Numbered from the stretch's first letter, positions 40,108 through 60,216 are shown. The stretch: DNA of 64,000 nt from Promethearchaeia archaeon (GCA_029856145.1 JAHQWK010000011.1:96001-160000), one strand, 5' to 3'. Notes: generated by a model not told the origin, from the letters alone. Numbers and translations are program-made.

Positions 40108-40199
40108 AAAGCAACTTCATATTATTTATATCCATTCTTGGATTAGCATCATTATTTCTAAAAATTCTTTGATTTTATACATCTCTCGATATAGAAAAT

Positions 40200-40853
40200 T
40201 TAGTGAGGTCTCCACTTTGAAGATATTATTATTATTATAAAAAACAACAATAGAAAAGGGGATAAAATAAAAAATGTTAATGAATAATAATAATAGAAGG
40301 TCCATGTAATGAGTATTATTGAAGCAATTAACAATGCTACTAAATAATATAGTGAATTATTTCTTTTCATTTCATATATACTACCAAATATTATTATAAA
40401 AGATCCAAAAAACATACCTATCATTCCAACACCGGGAAGATAAGACCCCCAAAGGCTCGGTGGCTTCCAAAAAAAGTATATAGTATAATTTGTTATATAA
40501 ACATATTCTATTATAATACTCAAATTTAATGTTGAAATAATCATTAATACGCTGACAGTAAACGATTCTCCAGCAAGTTTTCCAGTATTAAGATTTCCCT
40601 TATCAATACTTCTAAAAATATAAAAAGTAATAATTATACAAGCTAAAATTAAAATAGCTAAAATAAGATTTAAACCAAAAGGACTTAAAAAAAATCTCAA
40701 ACTAAAATCCTTTATTACAAAGCCCCAATAGAAGAATACTTGCCCAAATTCATTAACAACATATGATGTAAAAATCAAAGGAAATAAGAATCCAATGAAA
40801 GTTAGTATAATTCCAACCTTAAGACTAAAAATATATATTTCGTTTTCTTCCAT
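40200..40853 (-). CDS. Polytopic membrane protein (last gene of the radical SAM locus)
   Basis: About 6 TM segments; starts 17 bp after the peptide gene at 40871-41128. Confidence 0.7.
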   Translation of the reverse strand: MEENEIYIFSLKVGIILTFIGFLFPLIFTSYVVNEFGQVFFYWGFVIKDFSLRFFLSPFGLNLILAILILACIIITFYIFRSIDKGNLNTGKLAGESFTVSVLMIISTLNLSIIIEYVYITNYTIYFFWKPPSLWGSYLPGVGMIGMFFGSFIIIFGSIYEMKRNNSLYYLVALLIASIILITWTFYYYYSLTFFILSPFLLLFFIIIIISSKWRPH

Positions 40854-40870
40854 TTTTTATTTCCTATAAA

Positions 40871-41128
40871 TTAGGATTTTCTTTTTTTGATTTTAAAATC
40901 TTTCATTCTTACAGTTGAATATCCCGTTCCAGCAGGATAGGTATTTCTACTGATTTCTGCTGTTAATATAAGTATAGATATTGCCCAAAAAGAGATCATT
41001 ATTATAATTATTAGCTTAAAAATTAGCGTATACCTACTATTATTAAAAAATAGTACCTTATTCATTTCTTTATTTGTTAATCCTAATTCTTTACCAATCT
41101 TATAAAACTCGATGATATCCTTAATCAT
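40871..41128 (-). CDS. Single-TM peptide, putative radical SAM substrate (paralogue 1)
   Basis: FYKIGKELGL leader, TM helix, NTYPAGTGYSTVRMKDFK tail; paralogue at 43750-43995. Confidence 0.8.
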   Translation of the reverse strand: MIKDIIEFYKIGKELGLTNKEMNKVLFFNNSRYTLIFKLIIIIMISFWAISILILTAEISRNTYPAGTGYSTVRMKDFKIKKRKS

Positions 41129-41176
41129 TCTTTATTCCCATTTTTTATAAATTATCCATTTTTTAAATTACAGATT

Positions 41177-42301
41177 TTATATATTTAATATGCTAGAATA
41201 GATATTTTTGTATTTTGATAAAACTGTATCCATTTTTCCTTTTACTTTAAAAATTTTCGAATTAAAACGTACATTTTCTATTGCTCGTAAACAATAGGGC
41301 GAATCTTCTGAGTTTAAGGCATATCTTGTTCCTAAACAGCCTCCTTTACATTCATTCACCATATCACAGTTTTTACAATATCCACGTAAATTTTCTTTTT
41401 CAAAATTGCGATTATAATTAAAAGCATAAGGATTTGATATAATTTCCTTTAGACTATTGGTTCTTACATTTCCTTCAATAAATTTATCTGAAAGGGTTAA
41501 ACATCCTTTAATATTTCCATTGCTTTGAATACCTAACACTGAATATCCTGCTTGACATCCAACCCATGGTGCTAATCCCAAATTTGGTATGAATCTTGAA
41601 AAATAACCAATACAATGTGCTCCTATTACAGGGAGTCTTCGATAGGAGTATTTTTTAACATTAATTGCAATAAACATTGCTAATGCATAATATTCTTCTC
41701 TTGAAATCATTAATTCTTTAGGAAAGCGCCCAATAGGGACTGCTAATTGAATTTGCCAAGAAATATTTTGATCCAAAATTAAATTTTTAATTAAATCTAC
41801 TTCCTTTAAGTTTTTTTTATTAATGGCTGTTATTATTGAAACTGGCAGTTTTTCTTTTTTTAAAATCTTCATTGCATTTATAGTTTTATCGTAAGCTCCT
41901 TTAATTCCTCTAAGATAATCATGAGTTTCTGGAATTCCACCGTCTAAGCTTAAAGATACACAATCTACATCTAGTTTTTTCAATTTTTGAATATGTTTAA
42001 CAAGATTTAATCCGTTAGTAACAATTGATAAGTCCATTTTATATTTCTTAACTTCTTTCGCAATTTCAAACCAGTCCTCTCTAATTAGAGGTTCTCCACC
42101 CATTAATGCGACACCTTTATAGCCACATGAATGCAAATCTTTTACCAATTCTAACGCTTCCTCAGTATTTAACTCATCTGAACGCGCGCTACCCGCTCTG
42201 GACCCACAATGAATGCATAAACTATTACACTTTAAAGTAATTTCCCAAACTGCACAAGAATTTTTTATTCTACGGGTTAAAAGTGATATTAAACTTGGCA
42301 T
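41177..42301 (-). CDS. Radical SAM/SPASM domain protein, peptide-maturase-like
   Basis: AVWEITLKCNSLCIHCGSRAG, MGGEP, SLSLDG; SPASM GCQAG...GNIKGC...GNV...CKNCDMVNECKGGC...YC. Confidence 0.92.
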   Translation of the reverse strand: MPSLISLLTRRIKNSCAVWEITLKCNSLCIHCGSRAGSARSDELNTEEALELVKDLHSCGYKGVALMGGEPLIREDWFEIAKEVKKYKMDLSIVTNGLNLVKHIQKLKKLDVDCVSLSLDGGIPETHDYLRGIKGAYDKTINAMKILKKEKLPVSIITAINKKNLKEVDLIKNLILDQNISWQIQLAVPIGRFPKELMISREEYYALAMFIAINVKKYSYRRLPVIGAHCIGYFSRFIPNLGLAPWVGCQAGYSVLGIQSNGNIKGCLTLSDKFIEGNVRTNSLKEIISNPYAFNYNRNFEKENLRGYCKNCDMVNECKGGCLGTRYALNSEDSPYCLRAIENVRFNSKIFKVKGKMDTVLSKYKNIYSSILNI

Positions 42302-42418
42302 TGCAATTATCGGATTCTTTTTCTGAAATATAAATTGATTAAATTTCTTTAAAAACTTTTGTTATAAAAATTGAATATTTCATAATATAATCGCTATGGA
42401 GTATAATTTAATTGCTTT

Positions 42419-43753
42419 TTAATTTACGGAATAGTACTTATCGAGAGTTATGATAGGATTAAAGTTCGCTAATGGTACTGTTGACTTCTTTACGCAACTT
42501 ATTTCTGAAGCGATATCCTTTTTGATCATCTTTTTATTCTTTATATTACTAATTCTTAACAATCTTAATGTTCTCCTGTAAGTTTTTAGTGCATCTGATC
42601 TTAAATTCAATTTAACAAACACTTTTGCTAAATTCCAGTAATAGATTAAATCATCCCTAAATATTTGAATTGAGTCTAACAATTTCTCTTTAGCAATTTC
42701 ATAATTTTGATTGTAAACTTCCTTTATTCCTTGATAGAAAAATACTTGAGATTTTCTTTGAATCATTGCAGAAGAGAAAAAGAACAACTTATTCGGTTTA
42801 TTAGTTATTGAGAGTTCTTTTAGACGAGTCAATTGTTGCTGCTTTTCATTTTTGATAAACATTAATTTCTCTATTATTCTTTCACCAAATGCTTCTATTG
42901 ATGAAAATGCAAACATTTGGGATCCTGGAATTGTTGGCAGTCTTTTAAGGGAATTAAATAGAATATTAGGAAGGTTGTATTTTATTATATATTCAATTAT
43001 TTCATAAATGTATTTTATCTCAAAAATTGAAAGATAATTGATATCCTCAATCCCTTTAAGAAAAATGTTAGCTACTTGAGGAAATCTTATTAGAATGGTC
43101 TTAATAATTTCAAATATAATATTTTTATCTTTTCTTCTTTCAAATTCTTTTAACTTTAATATTATAAAAGTTACTAAATCCTCTTGTTCTTTTGCTAAAA
43201 AAGAGTCTTTAAAATCTACTAGATTCTCTAATAACATTTGTTTTCGAATATGCGTAATAACTTGAAAGAAATTCTCTTTTGAAGGCTTTTTGCATTCAAC
43301 TCTTAAAGTGGGTATTGACTCTGTGTTATAAAATTTTCTTTCCTTTATATCAATAAATCCTATTTTTCTAAGCATTTCTGCTAACAATTCTGAGGGATAA
43401 CATAACTTATGTTGAAGTCCTTTATGAGGAATACCAAATATCCATCCTAAAATTTCCTTTTGTTGTTCATAGTTTCCATTTAAATAGGATTGAAAAGCCT
43501 TTTCAATATCAGGTGTTTCTATTATTAGAACTCCATTAAACTGTAAGACTCTAAAAAATTCGCTTAATACATAGAGAGATTTGAAAAAACCAATATGTTC
43601 AATTAATTGAATTGCTTTAACTTCTTCACAAGAGTTATCGGAAAATGAGAGATTTATAGCAGACATTTGTTGATCTGCTAAGATATCTTCATATAAATCA
43701 ATATTGTAATAATCTGGCTCATATCTTCTTCCAGAGCCCACATTTAACTTCAT
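42419..43753 (-). CDS. Class I SAM-dependent methyltransferase domain fused to a C-terminal TPR region
   Basis: KLNVGSG..YYNID, QLIEHI, EFFRVLQFNGVLIIETPD; TPR-like FFYQGIKEVYNQNYEIAKEKL..YYWNLAKVFVKLNLRSDALKTYRRTL. Confidence 0.85.
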   Translation of the reverse strand: MKLNVGSGRRYEPDYYNIDLYEDILADQQMSAINLSFSDNSCEEVKAIQLIEHIGFFKSLYVLSEFFRVLQFNGVLIIETPDIEKAFQSYLNGNYEQQKEILGWIFGIPHKGLQHKLCYPSELLAEMLRKIGFIDIKERKFYNTESIPTLRVECKKPSKENFFQVITHIRKQMLLENLVDFKDSFLAKEQEDLVTFIILKLKEFERRKDKNIIFEIIKTILIRFPQVANIFLKGIEDINYLSIFEIKYIYEIIEYIIKYNLPNILFNSLKRLPTIPGSQMFAFSSIEAFGERIIEKLMFIKNEKQQQLTRLKELSITNKPNKLFFFSSAMIQRKSQVFFYQGIKEVYNQNYEIAKEKLLDSIQIFRDDLIYYWNLAKVFVKLNLRSDALKTYRRTLRLLRISNIKNKKMIKKDIASEISCVKKSTVPLANFNPIITLDKYYSVN

Positions 43754-43995
43754 TTTTTATTTTTAAAATCATTTAATTTAACAGATGAATATAAGGTTCC
43801 GCTTGGATAAACAGATTTAGATCCAACAACTATAGCGACAACTATAACAACAGCTAATGAAGCTAAAAAAAATATCAATGAAAGTGTAAATAATATAGAA
43901 CGATTGCCTGAAAATAAAAATGTTCGATTAATTTCACTTTTTTTTAATCCTAACTCTTTACCAATTCTATAAAATTGAGTTAATTCTTTGAACAT
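43750..43995 (-). CDS. Single-TM peptide, putative radical SAM substrate (paralogue 2), 81 aa
   Basis: The likely start is ATG 43995 (GAGGTGA upstream; aligns with paralogue 1), not 44115. FYRIGKELGL...SVYPSGTLYSSVKLNDFK; ATGA overlap with the methyltransferase gene. Confidence 0.8.
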   Translation of the reverse strand: MFKELTQFYRIGKELGLKKSEINRTFLFSGNRSILFTLSLIFFLASLAVVIVVAIVVGSKSVYPSGTLYSSVKLNDFKNKK

Positions 43996-44204
43996 GTTGT
44001 AAATTTCACCTCTTAAATATAGAATAATGCTATATGCTTTTTTATTATAATTACATATAAAAACATTTCTTTGGTATATTAATAGTCTAAGAGATTTTAA
44101 AGCTTTAAGGTGCACTTTTCGAACATTATGAAATATTCTTGAAATTAGGAAATTATTTTTAGCTTTTTTCCCTTAAAAGTTAAGTTGCACTTAATTTTAG
44201 TTAT

Positions 44205-46013
44205 TTAGATGGCAAGCAATCTTAATTTCTTCATGATTGTATCTTTAATTTTCTCGATCCGTTGAAATGCTTCATTAGGTACAGTCTGGCTTATTCGCAA
44301 AATTGAGTTTATAAGGTCTGGTTCTAAAAGATCCTCAATCAATATTCCTCGCTCTATAAGGTTTTTACCCTCGTTATAGATTAAAAGTATAACTTTGATT
44401 ATCCCTAATAATTTTTTAATACTTGTATAATTATCAGTGTCATCGAAAGCGTTTTGAATTAAGAATCCGTCTCTAATCATTTTTGCAATGAATAGAACTA
44501 ACTGTTGAGATTCAGGTAAATTTTTTTCTCCAACCAATTGTAGAATATGTTTCAATTCTTGTTCTTGGGATAATATCTCATTTACTTGGTTTCTACATTG
44601 AGACCAATCAATATCTATCTCTGGCCAATCTATATCTCTCTCATACCACCATTCAGAAATGAATTGGGAATAATTTGAATATGAATTCAACCAAGTAATG
44701 GCAGGATAATGTTTTAGATAAGCAAGTTTAGGATCCAAAGCCCAAAAAACTTGAACTAAACGCTTAGTTGTTGCTGTTACTGGTTCGCTGAAATCCCCCG
44801 CAGGAGGAGAAATAGTGCCAATGATTGATATTGAACCAATTCTTTCATTTCCTAAATGATCTTTTCCTAAAGTTCTAACAACTCCTGCTCTTTCATAAAA
44901 ACTAGATAGTTTAGATGGTAGATAAGCAGGATATCCTTCTTCTGCGGGCATTTCTTCTAATAATCCTGAAATTTCTCTCAAAGATTCAGCCCATCTTGAT
45001 ATACTATCAGCTAGAACTGCAACATCATATCCCATATCTCGATAATATTCTGCAATCGTTACTCCAGAAAATAAGCTAGCCTCCCGAGCAGATACAGGCA
45101 TATTAGATGTATTAGCTATAAGTATAACTCTATCTAATAATGTTTCTCCGCTTTGGGGGTCTCTAATTTCTGAAAATTGTTTCAAAATATTAGCAATTTC
45201 ATTTCCAGGTTCACCACACCCAATAAATACAATTAAATCAGCATTACACCATTTAGCGAGTAATTGCTGAATCACAGTTTTTCCTGTGCCAAAACCGCCC
45301 GGAATCGCAACTGTTCCTCCTTTTGCTATCGGAAATAATAAGTCTATAACCCTTATTCCCGTGATCAATGGCTCACGAGGATCTTCTTTTCTCATATAAG
45401 GGCGCTTTTTTGTTATTGGCCATTTTTGCAGCATTGAGAAAGATTTTTCTATACTATTTTTTTTTATTAGAAAAATCTCATCTGTGATTGTATAATCTCC
45501 TTCTTGAGCAATAAAGGATATTTCTCCATTGATAAATGGAGGGACCATTATTTTATGTTCAAAAAATGTAGTTTCTTGTATAGTACCAATAATATCTCCT
45601 GCATTGACGTTATCATTATTTTTCCTTATTGGTACAAAATGCCATTTTTTACTTCTAGATAAAGAAGGATATTTTACTCCTCTCCCTAATCTTCCATTAT
45701 TAAAATCTTCAAATACTTTTCCTAATGGTCTCTGTATCCCATCGAAAACGTTTGATAAAAGCCCTGGAGCTAATTCCATTGAAAGAGGTTCATTCAAACT
45801 AACAACTTCTTCATTTAACTGTAGGTTTATGGTATTTTCAAAACATTGACTAATTATATGATCTGAATAGATCTGAATTACTTCTCCCAGGATATTATAT
45901 TTAGAGATATTAATTAGGTCGAAAAGATGGACATGATTTTCCAGACCTTTAATTTTGATAAGCGATCCATTAATTGCAGAAATATAGCCAATTTTTATTT
46001 CTGTTTCATTCAT
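44205..46013 (-). CDS. atpA: A/V-type ATP synthase subunit A, second copy with altered catalytic motifs
   Basis: [36 protein letters not shown]; GCGEPGNE and ADSISRW replace GCGERGNE and ADSTSRW. Confidence 0.93.
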
Positions 46014-56571: not shown

Positions 56572-57927
56572 ATGTTAATTTCAATGTTACAATTTAAGAT
56601 AAATGAATTTATTACCCTAAAACTTGAAGATAAGAAGACTAATCTTTATATAAATGGAGAATTGTTTGAGCAATGTTCATATATCTTACTAAATAAAAGA
56701 GCTGATAAATTAGAAGAGCTGCAAGCTATTGACTCTGTTGATGAATTAGCAGAATTATCTATAGATGAAATAGCGAAAACTCCTTCTCATATAAAAGAAG
56801 ATGATTTTGAAATAGAAATATTAGACATTCCTGCTCATGTGAGATTCTTAGTCCACTGCTCAAATCTACAAGCATGGGCAGAGAATAATTATGACACTCG
56901 ACTTCTTCATAGTAATCTTTCATTTCCTTTATTAAAAAAGCTTACTGAAGTCGGAGACACAAAAGCAAAACAAAAATTTAAAGAAGAAATAATTTTCCGA
57001 TTTTTTAATGGTACTAAAAATATCCAGAAATATCTACTACAAGAGGGATATATGAAGTTGATCACTATTGATGAGAAATATATCCTATTCAAATTAGAGG
57101 AAGAGGAAAATGTGATTAGAGAATTAGAAAGGTTAACTGGAAAAGAATTCAATATAGACAATGAAGAATTTCTTTATTATCAAAGTCTTGTATTAAAAGA
57201 GGGGAAAGTAAAGGAACTAAATCTAGTAAGGTGTAATATAACAGAAATACCTAGAATAATTAAAAGACTAAAAAACTTAGAAGTATTGAGGATTTATAGT
57301 AATCAATTGAGACAGCTTCCTGATTGGATTGGAGAGATAAGTTCTCTGAAAATTCTTAAGATACTTGAAGAACTAGAAGAATTACCTGATTCAATCGGAC
57401 ATCTAAAATCTCTAGAAATATTAGAATTGCATGACACTATGATCAAGACGCTACCTGAATCGTTTGGTAATCTCTATAAGCTTAGGAAATTAGACCTTAG
57501 TCATAATAAATTAAAAAATCTACCCGAATCATTTGGAAATTTAAAAGCACTTGAGCAATTGATTGTAGTTAATAATGAATTAGAAATTTTGCCAAAATCA
57601 TTTGGAAACCTTACTTCATTGAAAGAATTAGAGTTAAGTGAGAATAAACTGATAACACTTCCAGATTCTTTTGGATACTTAAAGTCTCTTAGGGTAGTCG
57701 ATCTATCTAATAATCAATTAAAGCAAATCCCAGAATTAATCGGAAATCTTAAATCAATAAAAACTATTACCTTGAACACAAATTTATTGGAATATATACC
57801 TAAATCAATAGGAAATCTTAAGACACTTATAAGCCTTGATTTAAGTAATAATAAGATAGCAAAACTCCCTTATTCTATTGGAGATCTAACTCTGAGGGAG
57901 TTTGAAGATAATTTGGAATATCTTTAA
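56572..57927 (+). CDS. Leucine-rich repeat protein with a conserved N-terminal domain typical of Lokiarchaeia
   Basis: About 10 LRRs of 23 aa (LPESFGNLxxLxxLDLSxNxL); N-terminal FKINEFITLKLE and HCSNLQAWAENNYDTRLLHSNLSFPLLKKL. Confidence 0.92.
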   Translation: MLISMLQFKINEFITLKLEDKKTNLYINGELFEQCSYILLNKRADKLEELQAIDSVDELAELSIDEIAKTPSHIKEDDFEIEILDIPAHVRFLVHCSNLQAWAENNYDTRLLHSNLSFPLLKKLTEVGDTKAKQKFKEEIIFRFFNGTKNIQKYLLQEGYMKLITIDEKYILFKLEEEENVIRELERLTGKEFNIDNEEFLYYQSLVLKEGKVKELNLVRCNITEIPRIIKRLKNLEVLRIYSNQLRQLPDWIGEISSLKILKILEELEELPDSIGHLKSLEILELHDTMIKTLPESFGNLYKLRKLDLSHNKLKNLPESFGNLKALEQLIVVNNELEILPKSFGNLTSLKELELSENKLITLPDSFGYLKSLRVVDLSNNQLKQIPELIGNLKSIKTITLNTNLLEYIPKSIGNLKTLISLDLSNNKIAKLPYSIGDLTLREFEDNLEYL

Positions 57928-58273
57928 TAGACAAATAGAAGATCTCTAAAGTACACATTTTTTTATTTAAATACGAGTGTGATTATTTAATATTAGGCAA
58001 GAATTTCATCATTAATTCAATAGAATAACTTTTTACTATGATAAGAAAACATGGGCCCTACTTACACCCTGGATTTTTGTCTTTTGGTAGTGTAAATTCT
58101 TACACTCTGATTTCGCCCTCCTCCACCTATTTTGTTTTGACGCTCATTTGCGTCTCGTACAGTAGGGACCCCCCTTTCTCCAAACTATTATTAATTTACA
58201 TATTGTCTAAATTTTTTATTTAACCACAGCTCTCATACATTTTATATAATGCTAAATCCATTTTATAAGCAGG

Positions 58274-58522
58274 ATGTCTCAAAAAAGTGACGCTGTAAAA
58301 CAAGCAAGAAGGGAGTTAATTCAACATACTCTGGATAAAATTTGTGGGACTCGTGATTTTTGGGAGCTTAAGAGGAGTACTTTTGTTGTACTCGCACATT
58401 TATAGCTCCACACTAAAGCAGAAAAAGAAGGACTGTTTGAATTAGATGAATGGGCGCACCCTCAGCTTAGAGAACGCCTTATTGAAATAATTGAGACCTT
58501 TCTCACTAAGCATATAAGATAA
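58274..58522 (+). pseudogene. 82-codon ORF interrupted by an in-frame TAG at 58403
   Basis: MSQKSDAVKQARRELIQHTLDKICGTRDFWELKRSTFVVLAHL*LHTKAEKEGLFELDEWAHPQLRERLIEIIETFLTKHIR; looks protein-like on both sides of the stop. Confidence 0.6.
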
Positions 58523-58725
58523 GGAGTTTGACTCCATGGTGAAAAACTGTTTTCTTCTATTGTAATAAACTTAAGGATTCATATGTCGCATTTTATATTC
58601 ATCACTCCAGAACAGTAATTATATTTAAATATCTTCTTCAATAACATCCTATACGAATCCAATTTTTACTTTTAAAAGGTAAAAAATGGATGAAATCTAA
58701 TTATAAATGTAAAAGATGAAAAAAT

Positions 58726-60216
58726 ATGAATAAAAAAAACAAATTTAGTTTAATAGGTCTAAGCCTTTTATTTATCATTGGATTTTCAACCAGTGGAATG
58801 GCATATTTCGATCCTGGTAGTGGGGGCGGTTCTCTTCTTCCTACTCCTGAACTTTATCAACCCACTTCCCCAGATTATGATGGTATTATTATATTAGAGT
58901 GGAGTGAAGTAAGTGGAGCTGATTATAAAATATACAGATGGAATTCACAGACTGGAATATATAAGCTTATAGCAGCAACAACGAATAGAGCGCGAACTTA
59001 TATAGATGCAATTCCTAATGGCACTTGGGCATATAAAGTCAAAGCATATAACCCTGATACGGGGCAACAGTCATTATGTTCTAACCCTAAATCAGTAGTT
59101 GTAGAGTTACCCGCACCAAAACCTTTAATAGGTTCAACCCAAAGATTCTTTCCTCAAGAACTAGATGCGAAATTAGGATTTACAATTTTGAGTATTGATA
59201 CCTATTATACTCCAACAATTGAGTTTAGTCTAATTAACACAATGGATCCTGATAAAACTATAGATATTAAAATATATGTTGATAATTCAGAAATCTATAA
59301 TGAAATGGGCATTATACTAACAAAAAATGACCTGTATCCATTTATAATCGATGCAAATGAACTCACAACTCCATTAACGCATCAGATAGTAATAGAACTT
59401 TCTCATGGTCAGAATATCAGATTAGAAGATCTATTTATTAACAATCTATGGTATATCGAAAACACACTTGATAATAATAAAAGATATACCCCCTTACAGA
59501 ATTGTATTTATAATGATTTACCAGATGATCCTGTTGTTGATCTTGAAGTCTTTGTTCCCTATACTGAGCCAGATGGGGAGGTAAATGATTATTTGGCTAC
59601 TTTTGGAACGTCTCTTTTAGTTAATATTGATCCTGATACTTATGACTTCACTAGAAGAGCTGGTGTACTACTCGAGATATGTACTTATTATATTCATGGA
59701 GTCTCTCTTCAATGGAGAGTTCTTTGTCCTGATGGAACTTATATGGATAATCAGAATTTAGGTATATTTTGTGATATTTCCACAAGTTATGAGGGAACGG
59801 ATTTTTATGAGCAAGTTAACCATGTTCTTAAACAGATAAGTAATATAATAAACCTTATCAATTTTCCCGAATATATAGAGGATCCATTAAATTGGGCAAT
59901 TAAATTTCTTACTTTTATGAACCCTGATGACCCAGTTATTTCTAAAGAAAGAATTGATAATGATAAATTCGTTGCATCGTGGCATGCAGGAGGATTCTTA
60001 GCGATTCCAAACCCAACACTAGAAAGTCTTAGTATGTATACTGGTTTTACAATTCAACTACCTAATCCAAAAATTCTAGGTTCTTATCAAATGGAAATAA
60101 CATGGATGATTGATATTGATCTTCTAGTATATCTATCCGGTTATCCAGCTGCTACTTCTCATGAAGACGCATATGAAGTATCATCAACCTATTATCTGAA
60201 CTTTGAGTATGTTTAA
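58726..60216 (+). CDS. Secreted/surface protein with fibronectin type III domain
   Basis: Signal peptide MNKKNKF...TSGMA|YFDPGSGGG; FN3 pattern IILEWSEVSGADYKIYR...YIDA..NGTWAYKVKAYN...SNPKSV. Confidence 0.8.
   Translation: MNKKNKFSLIGLSLLFIIGFSTSGMAYFDPGSGGGSLLPTPELYQPTSPDYDGIIILEWSEVSGADYKIYRWNSQTGIYKLIAATTNRARTYIDAIPNGTWAYKVKAYNPDTGQQSLCSNPKSVVVELPAPKPLIGSTQRFFPQELDAKLGFTILSIDTYYTPTIEFSLINTMDPDKTIDIKIYVDNSEIYNEMGIILTKNDLYPFIIDANELTTPLTHQIVIELSHGQNIRLEDLFINNLWYIENTLDNNKRYTPLQNCIYNDLPDDPVVDLEVFVPYTEPDGEVNDYLATFGTSLLVNIDPDTYDFTRRAGVLLEICTYYIHGVSLQWRVLCPDGTYMDNQNLGIFCDISTSYEGTDFYEQVNHVLKQISNIINLINFPEYIEDPLNWAIKFLTFMNPDDPVISKERIDNDKFVASWHAGGFLAIPNPTLESLSMYTGFTIQLPNPKILGSYQMEITWMIDIDLLVYLSGYPAATSHEDAYEVSSTYYLNFEYV

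Follow-up and report, generated by a model that had tools for sequence, protein, structure and literature searches.

The minus-strand ORF at 41177-42301 of the window (the whole stretch of 64,000 nucleotides that was analyzed) encodes a radical SAM/SPASM enzyme of 374 aa (rSAM), which was found to be part of a conserved trio of genes: the rSAM, a methyltransferase-TPR protein and one to four peptides with a conserved tail tyrosine. The best reading of this cassette is tyramine splicing of the peptide tails, a tentative assignment drawn from sequence comparison that falls just short of probable. Spliceases, a class of rSAM enzymes, remove C8H9NO at X-Tyr-Gly sites in which X is variable; the published cases considered here are bacterial peptides, and their X-Tyr-Gly site is strict (PMC9811515; PMC11414181; PMC11626197; PMC10533398). 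The source genome is that of an Asgard archaeon with a G+C content of about 29%, and the closest matches to its proteins carry the names Promethearchaeota, Promethearchaeia or Lokiarchaeia.

The ORF is complete and its orthologues share 42-100% identity. The N-terminal stretch reads CAVWEITLKCNSLCIHCGSRAG and contains the cluster motif CNSLCIHC (CX3CX2C; residues 25-32; 42206-42229, minus strand). In the SPASM domain (CX12GX4C ... CX2CX5CX3C ... C; 41291-41557, minus strand) the stretch WVGCQAGYSVLGIQSNGNIKGC is followed by CKNCDMVNECKGGC, and the last PYC completes the full seven-cysteine pattern. The strings that the initial annotation had quoted for the N-terminus and the SPASM domain were all recovered in a translation check. 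Across 55 sequences the seven SPASM cysteines (C249, C267, C309, C312, C318, C322 and C337) show no variation. With Pfam, Radical_SAM (PF04055; 92 bits, 6.2e-26) and SPASM (PF13186; 34.4 bits, 2.7e-08) were both detected above cut-off. Both superfamily features are present, and the encoded protein is a member of the radical SAM/SPASM superfamily.

Among the NCBIfam models, the highest score was obtained for TIGR04103 (nif11-class maturase 3) with 226 bits (6.4e-67; residues 14-342) and 225.1 bits in a six-frame search of the genome. Going by its name, this model is taken here to represent the type I spliceases (PlpX/PcpX). The second model was TIGR03913 (GDL-motif peptide maturase; 192.5 bits, 9.1e-57), and both alignments extend over approximately the full length of the rSAM. 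The family cut-offs are 725 bits (TIGR04103) and 591.75 bits (TIGR03913), of which the rSAM reaches 31% and 33%, respectively, placing it outside either family. The resemblance to spliceases claimed in the initial annotation was borne out by these two top models, whereas the scores do not extend it to family membership, so that the enzyme is best described as a relative of the splicease-type TIGR04103/TIGR03913 families. Of the two SPASM models named in the initial annotation, TIGR03913 ranked second while TIGR04064 was found outside the 25 best families. Further matches scored between 135 and 154 bits, namely TIGR04133 (154), AhbD (150), TIGR04053, WgkB (147, over the N-terminal half alone) and NirJ2 (135). 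The best PDB relatives by profile were SkfB, PqqE, CteB/SuiB-type enzymes and anSME; we know of no solved structure for any splicease. The predicted complex of rSAM, SAM, three 4Fe-4S clusters and pepA had a median score of 0.31, where the threshold is 0.32 and the controls gave 0.00-0.01; this value was taken as evidence in neither direction on binding.

When 1.8 billion representatives were scanned in full with HMMER, 461 proteins were retrieved at E <= 1e-30. Thirty of the best 150 relatives (the closest 50%-identity representatives), drawn from all parts of a 162-sequence tree, and six bacterial/Thermoplasmatota orthologues were scored against the curated models. For all 36 sampled relatives the same two models, TIGR04103 and TIGR03913, were on top with 165-318 bits, and none of the 36 reached the cut-off of either. 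The top rank went to TIGR03913 in the Thermoplasmatota and in several of the bacterial relatives. No TIGR03913 member was found at E <= 1e-100 in 301 Desulfobacterota genomes, and the control genomes contained no member of TIGR04103 or TIGR03913. The rSAM thus belongs to a broad radiation that is not covered by curated models, and the curated families closest to it are those of the splicease type. The PlpX-type enzymes seem to be located farther away than many uncharacterized clades, since no true member was among the 30 sampled of the 150 closest relatives.

In the tree of 162 relatives, which includes neither PlpX, PcpX and RhaX nor any other characterized splicease, the Asgard clade (support 0.92) is located inside a clade whose basal members adjoin xYG-array proteins. 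Directly upstream of the relative P0125, a protein of 237 aa (L048:3270-3983) is encoded, which carries seven repeats of the type xY[G/S][IF]P (KYGIKP, KYGFPG, MYGIPP, LYGIPS, LYSIPY, KYGFLP and RYGIIG; six YG and one YS). The neighbor of P0124 carries PMYGV, PKYGV and AMYSV. P0125 and P0124 branch at the base of that half of the rSAM tree which includes the enzyme of the window, and P0162, from the other half, adjoins a 64-aa peptide ending with EVAYGDGGGGG. Membrane proteins ending with TVYGEVPSDLD and VMYAAAAP adjoin P0137 and P0139, respectively; the contigs of P0130, P0133 and P0150 are too short for a view of their neighbors. The neighbors of these more distant relatives look like classic multi-core splice substrates, and the single YS unit that stands in register with the YG units in each of the arrays of P0125 and P0124 is the most direct natural hint that serine can replace glycine.

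The rSAM gene is located in an accessory island of 4.1 kb (40108-44204) between the convergent 3' ends of a tRNA-splicing endonuclease gene and a second copy of atpA. The five genes of the island, encoding pepB, the 444-aa partner, the rSAM, pepA and a 217-aa membrane protein, are co-oriented on the minus strand. In a congener (G049) the island is absent, and the corresponding flanks (C2:48146-50904 and C2:50948-54039) are separated by about 43 bp at the empty site (C2:50905-50947). Around the island, no integrase, flanking repeat or duplicated gene end was found, and the sole repeated sequences are the two peptide paralogues. The atpA-like gene beside the island (44205-46013) is a second copy, which at the DNA level aligns to two sites of the congener with 74% and 72% identity (C2:50948-54039 and 57917-59604).

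Enzyme orthologues (E < 1e-85) were identified in approximately 18 of 121 sampled Asgard genomes with a patchy distribution, and two congeners are without it. At 17 of 17 ortholog loci the enzyme is found beside one to four small proteins of one family, and the outer flanks vary from locus to locus. The profile of the one-TM peptide matched 15 of the 121 Asgard genomes, and all 15 also contain the enzyme, in nearly every case on the contig of the peptide; none of the enzyme-free genomes among the 121 contained the peptide. Judging from the inserted island and the patchy distribution, the cassette is an accessory trait that moves horizontally. A scan of GTDB species genomes resulted in 79 named loci. 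The archaeal loci belong to Promethearchaeota/-eia, Thor-, Hermod- and Hodarchaeota, Thermoplasmata/Thermoplasmatota, a Methanobacteriota MAG and a Nanohalarchaeota MAG, and the bacterial loci to Elusimicrobia, Geobacteraceae, Syntrophus/Smithellaceae and Nitrospira-type MAGs.

The two peptides of the window share the same layout. pepA (40871-41128, minus strand; peptide profile 9.4e-27) is a precursor of 85 aa with a leader helix (KIGKELGL), one TM helix, the core TYPAGTGYSTVRMKDF and a basic tail, and pepB (43750-43995, minus strand; peptide profile 2.2e-24) is a precursor of 81 aa with a leader helix (RIGKELGL), one TM helix and the core VYPSGTLYSSVKLNDF. The true start of pepB is the ATG at 43995, which is preceded by GAGGTGA, and not the upstream GTG; its stop codon overlaps the start of the methyltransferase gene (ATGA). 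Both peptides are paralogous, with a nucleotide identity of 74% across leader and core. Profile searches of the source genome detected two peptides, one partner protein and no others, and all three are located within the island.

Both peptides end with TYPxGxxYS..DF, and YG is absent from each; at the position of the X-Tyr-Gly splice motif of spliceotide systems they read GYS (pepA) and LYS (pepB). The proposed modification sites are Tyr70-Ser71 of pepA (X = Gly69; 40916-40921, minus strand) and Tyr69-Ser70 of pepB (X = Leu68; 43786-43791, minus strand), which share an invariant tyrosine column. In 31 aligned peptides, all of which are annotated as hypothetical in the database, G12 and L17 of the leader helix (G-x3-GL), Tyr64, Tyr70 and Asp77 are invariant, and Gly67 and Phe78 are nearly so. 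The initial annotation had described two invariant core tyrosines without YG in both neighboring peptides, which was confirmed and holds for the tyrosines throughout the 31 orthologous peptides. Since neither pepA nor pepB contains a cysteine, thioethers are excluded. No match to Pfam or NCBIfam, including the curated peptide families, was obtained for pepA and pepB even at E = 10, no leader of the Nif11/NHLP type was detected, and a look-up of pepA in the ESM Atlas gave no usable match.

The X position of pepA is a glycine (Gly69-Tyr70; 40919-40924). In PMC10533398 an aminopyruvate unit is described only for an engineered GYG site, and pepA, if spliced at GYS, would represent a natural glycine-derived aminopyruvate unit. 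More distant Asgard variants of the peptide have two TM helices, with TYPxG after the first and xYG[VA][FY] after the second. At loci L092-L100, L103 and L106 (Thermoplasmatota, Methanobacteriota), two to five short precursors of about 60-80 aa are arranged in tandem; these end with ...GPxxYPGxxYGT[IV]SI[KN]DF and appear to be without a TM helix, which would render them soluble.

The third component of the trio is the 444-aa partner (42419-43753, minus strand), whose AF2 model has a pLDDT of 90.8. In this model a minimal class I SAM-methyltransferase fold spans residues 1-155 (Foldseek: 1vlm, 2p8j and Rv2258c; E ~1e-5), followed by a helical middle part and C-terminal TPR repeats identified by a PDB profile search. 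In 18 orthologues the motifs for binding of SAM (LN[IV]G[CS]G, N-[IV]-D, [IV]-A-D, [IL]-E-H) are invariant, with the invariant residues G6, G8, D19, D27 and E52-H53. For the partner in the window, only the second half of Methyltransf_11 was detected with Pfam, below threshold, whereas the orthologues scored above threshold. A homologue is syntenic in 16 of the 17 ortholog loci, and 57 of the 79 named loci, among them loci of Elusimicrobia and Geobacteraceae, carry one no farther than 2.5 kb from the enzyme. In addition, an N-terminal methyltransferase(-TPR) part is naturally fused to a C-terminal rSAM/SPASM part in P0129 (728 aa) and P0136 (834 aa), two near relatives. Due to this conserved neighborhood and the natural fusions, the partner is a core and physically coupled component of the cassette, and its TPR part could bind the leader. 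The 217-aa multi-pass membrane protein (40200-40853, minus strand) is located inside the island and is not a core member of the cassette. It has no match in Pfam or NCBIfam, and homologues directly after a peptide gene were found in a few Promethearchaeota loci only (L087, 40%; L071, 33%; L023, 29%).

For the analysis of the core motif, 98 peptides could be aligned across the core, and 29 of 127 profile matches did not align there. The second (tail) tyrosine is present in 98 of 98 core-aligned peptides, by selection, and the first in 94 of 98. The motif Y-x2-G-x2-Y-x-[ST]-[IV]-x3-D-F adjoins the enzyme in 65 of the 79 named loci, and Tyr64, Gly67, Asp77 and Phe78 are near-invariant in the core-aligned peptides. 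The -1 position is freely variable (L39, R23, K11, Y9, F7 and others). Position +2 was determined to be T or S in 89 of 98 peptides, with A, V or G in some lineages (YGAIG, YGVIS, YGGVS), and position +3 to be I or V in 94 of 98.

The least constrained core position across lineages is +1 (G, S, A, N, F, Y and H). It was found to be S in 54 and G in one of the 55 Promethearchaeota peptides, and G in 21 and A in four of the 25 Thorarchaeota peptides. In Thermoplasmatota, G was found eight times and N twice, and nearly all further unaligned peptides of this lineage are also YG. G was also identified in the Hermod and delta-type bacterial loci, F, Y, H and A in Elusimicrobia and F in Geobacteraceae. 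Since the +1 residue is lineage-specific, YS is the form that Promethearchaeota show at a position occupied by glycine in most other lineages. The xYS instead of xYG pointed out in the initial annotation was correct, and is recast here as a clade-wide substitution at a position that is mostly YG in other lineages. Since F, Y and H occur in bacterial members, glycine is not required at +1 in the cassette family. Both alternatives put forward in the initial annotation, a variant splice site and some other tyrosine chemistry, are compatible with this pattern.

At locus L063, AFYGSV is found beside ALYSSV and TKYSSI with one enzyme, and two genomes of one genus carry YG/YG (L037) and YN/YS (L026). 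In Thor loci, one DYAS paralogue is retained among YG paralogues. The switch at +1 has occurred more than once. At L037 (L037:7066-8131; G034) a frameshift or an assembly error divides the rSAM orthologue between two overlapping frames (170 and 130 aa); the two YG peptides and the methyltransferase are intact.

Within the enzyme, residue 27 was the only position that stood out as tracking the +1 residue of the peptide. Ser27 (42221-42223), the third residue of the CX3CX2C loop, is conserved as serine in 27 of 28 Promethearchaeota enzymes, and in 45 of 45 enzymes from other lineages the residue is L or M. As it marks a single clade and coincides with the Gly-to-Ser change of the substrate, it is not independent evidence.

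According to the splicing reading, the rSAM would be the maturase of the three-part cassette and would modify pepA at Tyr70 and pepB at Tyr69, in the C-terminal tail of each. A tyramine equivalent (C8H9NO) would be excised and the carbonyl of the preceding residue joined to the former tyrosine carbonyl. The expected product is an alpha-keto-beta-amino residue, derived from glycine in pepA and from leucine in pepB and directly followed by serine. The xYS site would then be the Promethearchaeota form of the xYG site of the cassette family. The conserved N-terminal G-x3-GL helix may serve as leader helix, as in binary spliceases, where this helix activates the enzyme (PMC11414181), and the methyltransferase-TPR protein and the rSAM may work as a complex.

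Several findings point to this reading. TIGR04103 and TIGR03913 rank first for the rSAM and for the 36 sampled relatives, and the peptides are taken as its substrates because they are inseparable from the enzyme at the loci and across genomes. The tail motif behaves like X-Y-G, since -1 is free, the tyrosine is constant and +1 is mostly G in the Thor, Hermod, Thermoplasmatota and delta-type members. The mixed locus L063 and the genus pair L037/L026 suggest that YG and YS are interchangeable in nature. Splicing is also favored by the invariance of G12 and L17 in the leader, given the activating role of the helix in binary spliceases, and by the xYG arrays beside distant relatives, which resemble the splice tags of PlpA (...P[GL]YGLPI and ...AGYGVVF; PMC10533398). 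The two enzymes are tied together by the natural methyltransferase-rSAM fusions P0129 and P0136.

On the other side, the aromatic residues or histidine (F, Y, H) at +1 in Elusimicrobia and Geobacteraceae match no splice site described in the literature found. The scores reach only 31-33% of the cut-offs, and at such a distance from the curated families the chemistry of rSAM/SPASM enzymes is not reliably predicted. In the literature covered, the known spliceotide systems are described as X + A (+/- Y) without a core methyltransferase. No PlpY-like or RRE partner and no small PqqD-like gene was found in the island. Furthermore, the single TM helix would put leader and core on opposite sides of the membrane unless the peptide is modified before insertion.

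The strongest local conservation, Y-x-[ST]-[IV], equally fits a crosslink between tyrosine and serine or threonine. A different radical modification centered on the tyrosine, most likely a three-residue crosslink (cyclophane or ether) from Tyr70 to the +2 Ser/Thr with +1 as a mere spacer, is a serious rival to splicing, if on balance a rather unlikely one; a link between Tyr64 and Tyr70 is a further option of this kind. It would account for +1 being the least constrained position next to a conserved +2 (S/T in 89 of 98) and +3 (I/V in 94 of 98), and for the near-invariance of Tyr64, Gly67, Asp77 and Phe78. However, +2 is replaced by A, V or G in the lineages with YGAIG, YGVIS and YGGVS, and the relatives beside xYG arrays look like cases of splice substrates. 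Moreover, no curated crosslinking maturase comes near the splicease-type scores (WgkB, 147 bits; DynA, 74 bits; SkfB, 73 bits), and none of the 25 best NCBIfam matches is a cyclophane-forming family.

The purpose of the cassette is addressed by another, improbable explanation, according to which the three components would produce a cofactor or reactive group from a peptide, similar to PQQ or mycofactocin, with tyrosine processing by the rSAM, subsequent methylation and a membrane-anchored product. It is compatible with splicing as the first step and overlaps with either chemistry. The membrane-anchored substrate, the core cassette without an obvious cleavage site, protease or exporter, and a methyltransferase that is as conserved as the rSAM and sometimes fused to it are in line with such a product, and MftC (120 bits) and PqqE (84 bits) do match the rSAM. 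But the tyrosine is internal and not C-terminal as in MftA, and the patchy distribution, the absence in congeners and the inserted island fit an accessory trait better than a core cofactor. It is highly improbable that the rSAM is a non-peptide SPASM enzyme of the AhbC/AhbD/NirJ heme type, or another small-molecule type, with the small ORFs as bystanders. Although significant, the scores of AhbD (150 bits), NirJ2 (135 bits) and AhbC (117 bits) all fall far short of the respective cut-offs (500-650) and are below both peptide-maturase models. The island contains no heme genes, peptides are found beside the enzyme at all loci examined and are absent from enzyme-free genomes, and the tail motif is kept from Asgard archaea to bacteria. 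The grouping with AhbC/AhbD/NirJ that the initial annotation had named as contradicting its splicease assignment was not observed, the scores being lower and partly confined to the N-terminal half, and the context being peptides instead of heme genes. The heme-pathway reading was rejected on the basis of scores and gene context (peptides plus methyltransferase).

To our knowledge, spliceases are the only route to ribosomal beta-amino acids and alpha-ketoamide warheads. If tyramine splicing is true, this chemistry would reach beyond bacteria into archaea, Asgard archaea among them, and would include proteins anchored in the membrane, the glycine rule would be relaxed, which is useful for splice-tag engineering, and an as yet unexplained methylation step would be added. 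It is possible, although doubtful, that the cassette represents an undescribed branch of backbone-splicing systems, distributed over several archaeal phyla and anaerobic bacteria and characterized by membrane-anchored substrates, a non-glycine +1 residue (Ser, Ala, Asn, aromatics), a methyltransferase-TPR protein in the catalytic unit and a natural aminopyruvate in pepA. If the reaction is not splicing, a very widespread and strictly conserved modification of a tyrosine tail by a splicease-like enzyme would be new chemistry.

Compared to known systems, the cassette shares features with several groups. The three-residue cyclophane-forming rSAM/SPASM enzymes (triceptide type) use an aromatic, a variable and then a conserved residue, and the Tyr-x-Ser/Thr beside a SPASM enzyme is a likeness of motif logic only. 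The name of TIGR03913 ('rad_SAM_trio') refers to a GDL motif, and the peptides of the cassette end with a conserved x-D-F/L; the score of 33% of the cut-off differs from this family, and no curated GDL-peptide model matched pepA or pepB. With the type I enzymes PlpX/PcpX (equated here with TIGR04103), the rSAM shares CX3CX2C and the full SPASM architecture, and this model is the best one (226 bits). The tags of type I PlpA (YGLPI, YGVVF) resemble the cores beside the relatives of the rSAM. In contrast, the cassette is without a Nif11/NHLP leader and without PlpY, contains Ser instead of Gly at +1 and reaches 31% of the cut-off. The binary spliceotide systems of Rheinheimera (RhaX/RhaA, RcsX/RcsA, RasX/RasA; PMC11414181; PMC11626197) differ from the cassette, which has membrane-anchored precursors, an xYS site, an obligatory methyltransferase-TPR protein and archaeal hosts, and the likeness to them is one of description and not of sequence-level membership. 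As in these systems, the rSAM/SPASM enzyme adjoins its own precursor without an RRE/PlpY gene, and their precursors are similar to pepA and pepB with an N-terminal helix, a C-terminal core and one or a few X-Tyr-small sites with a variable X.
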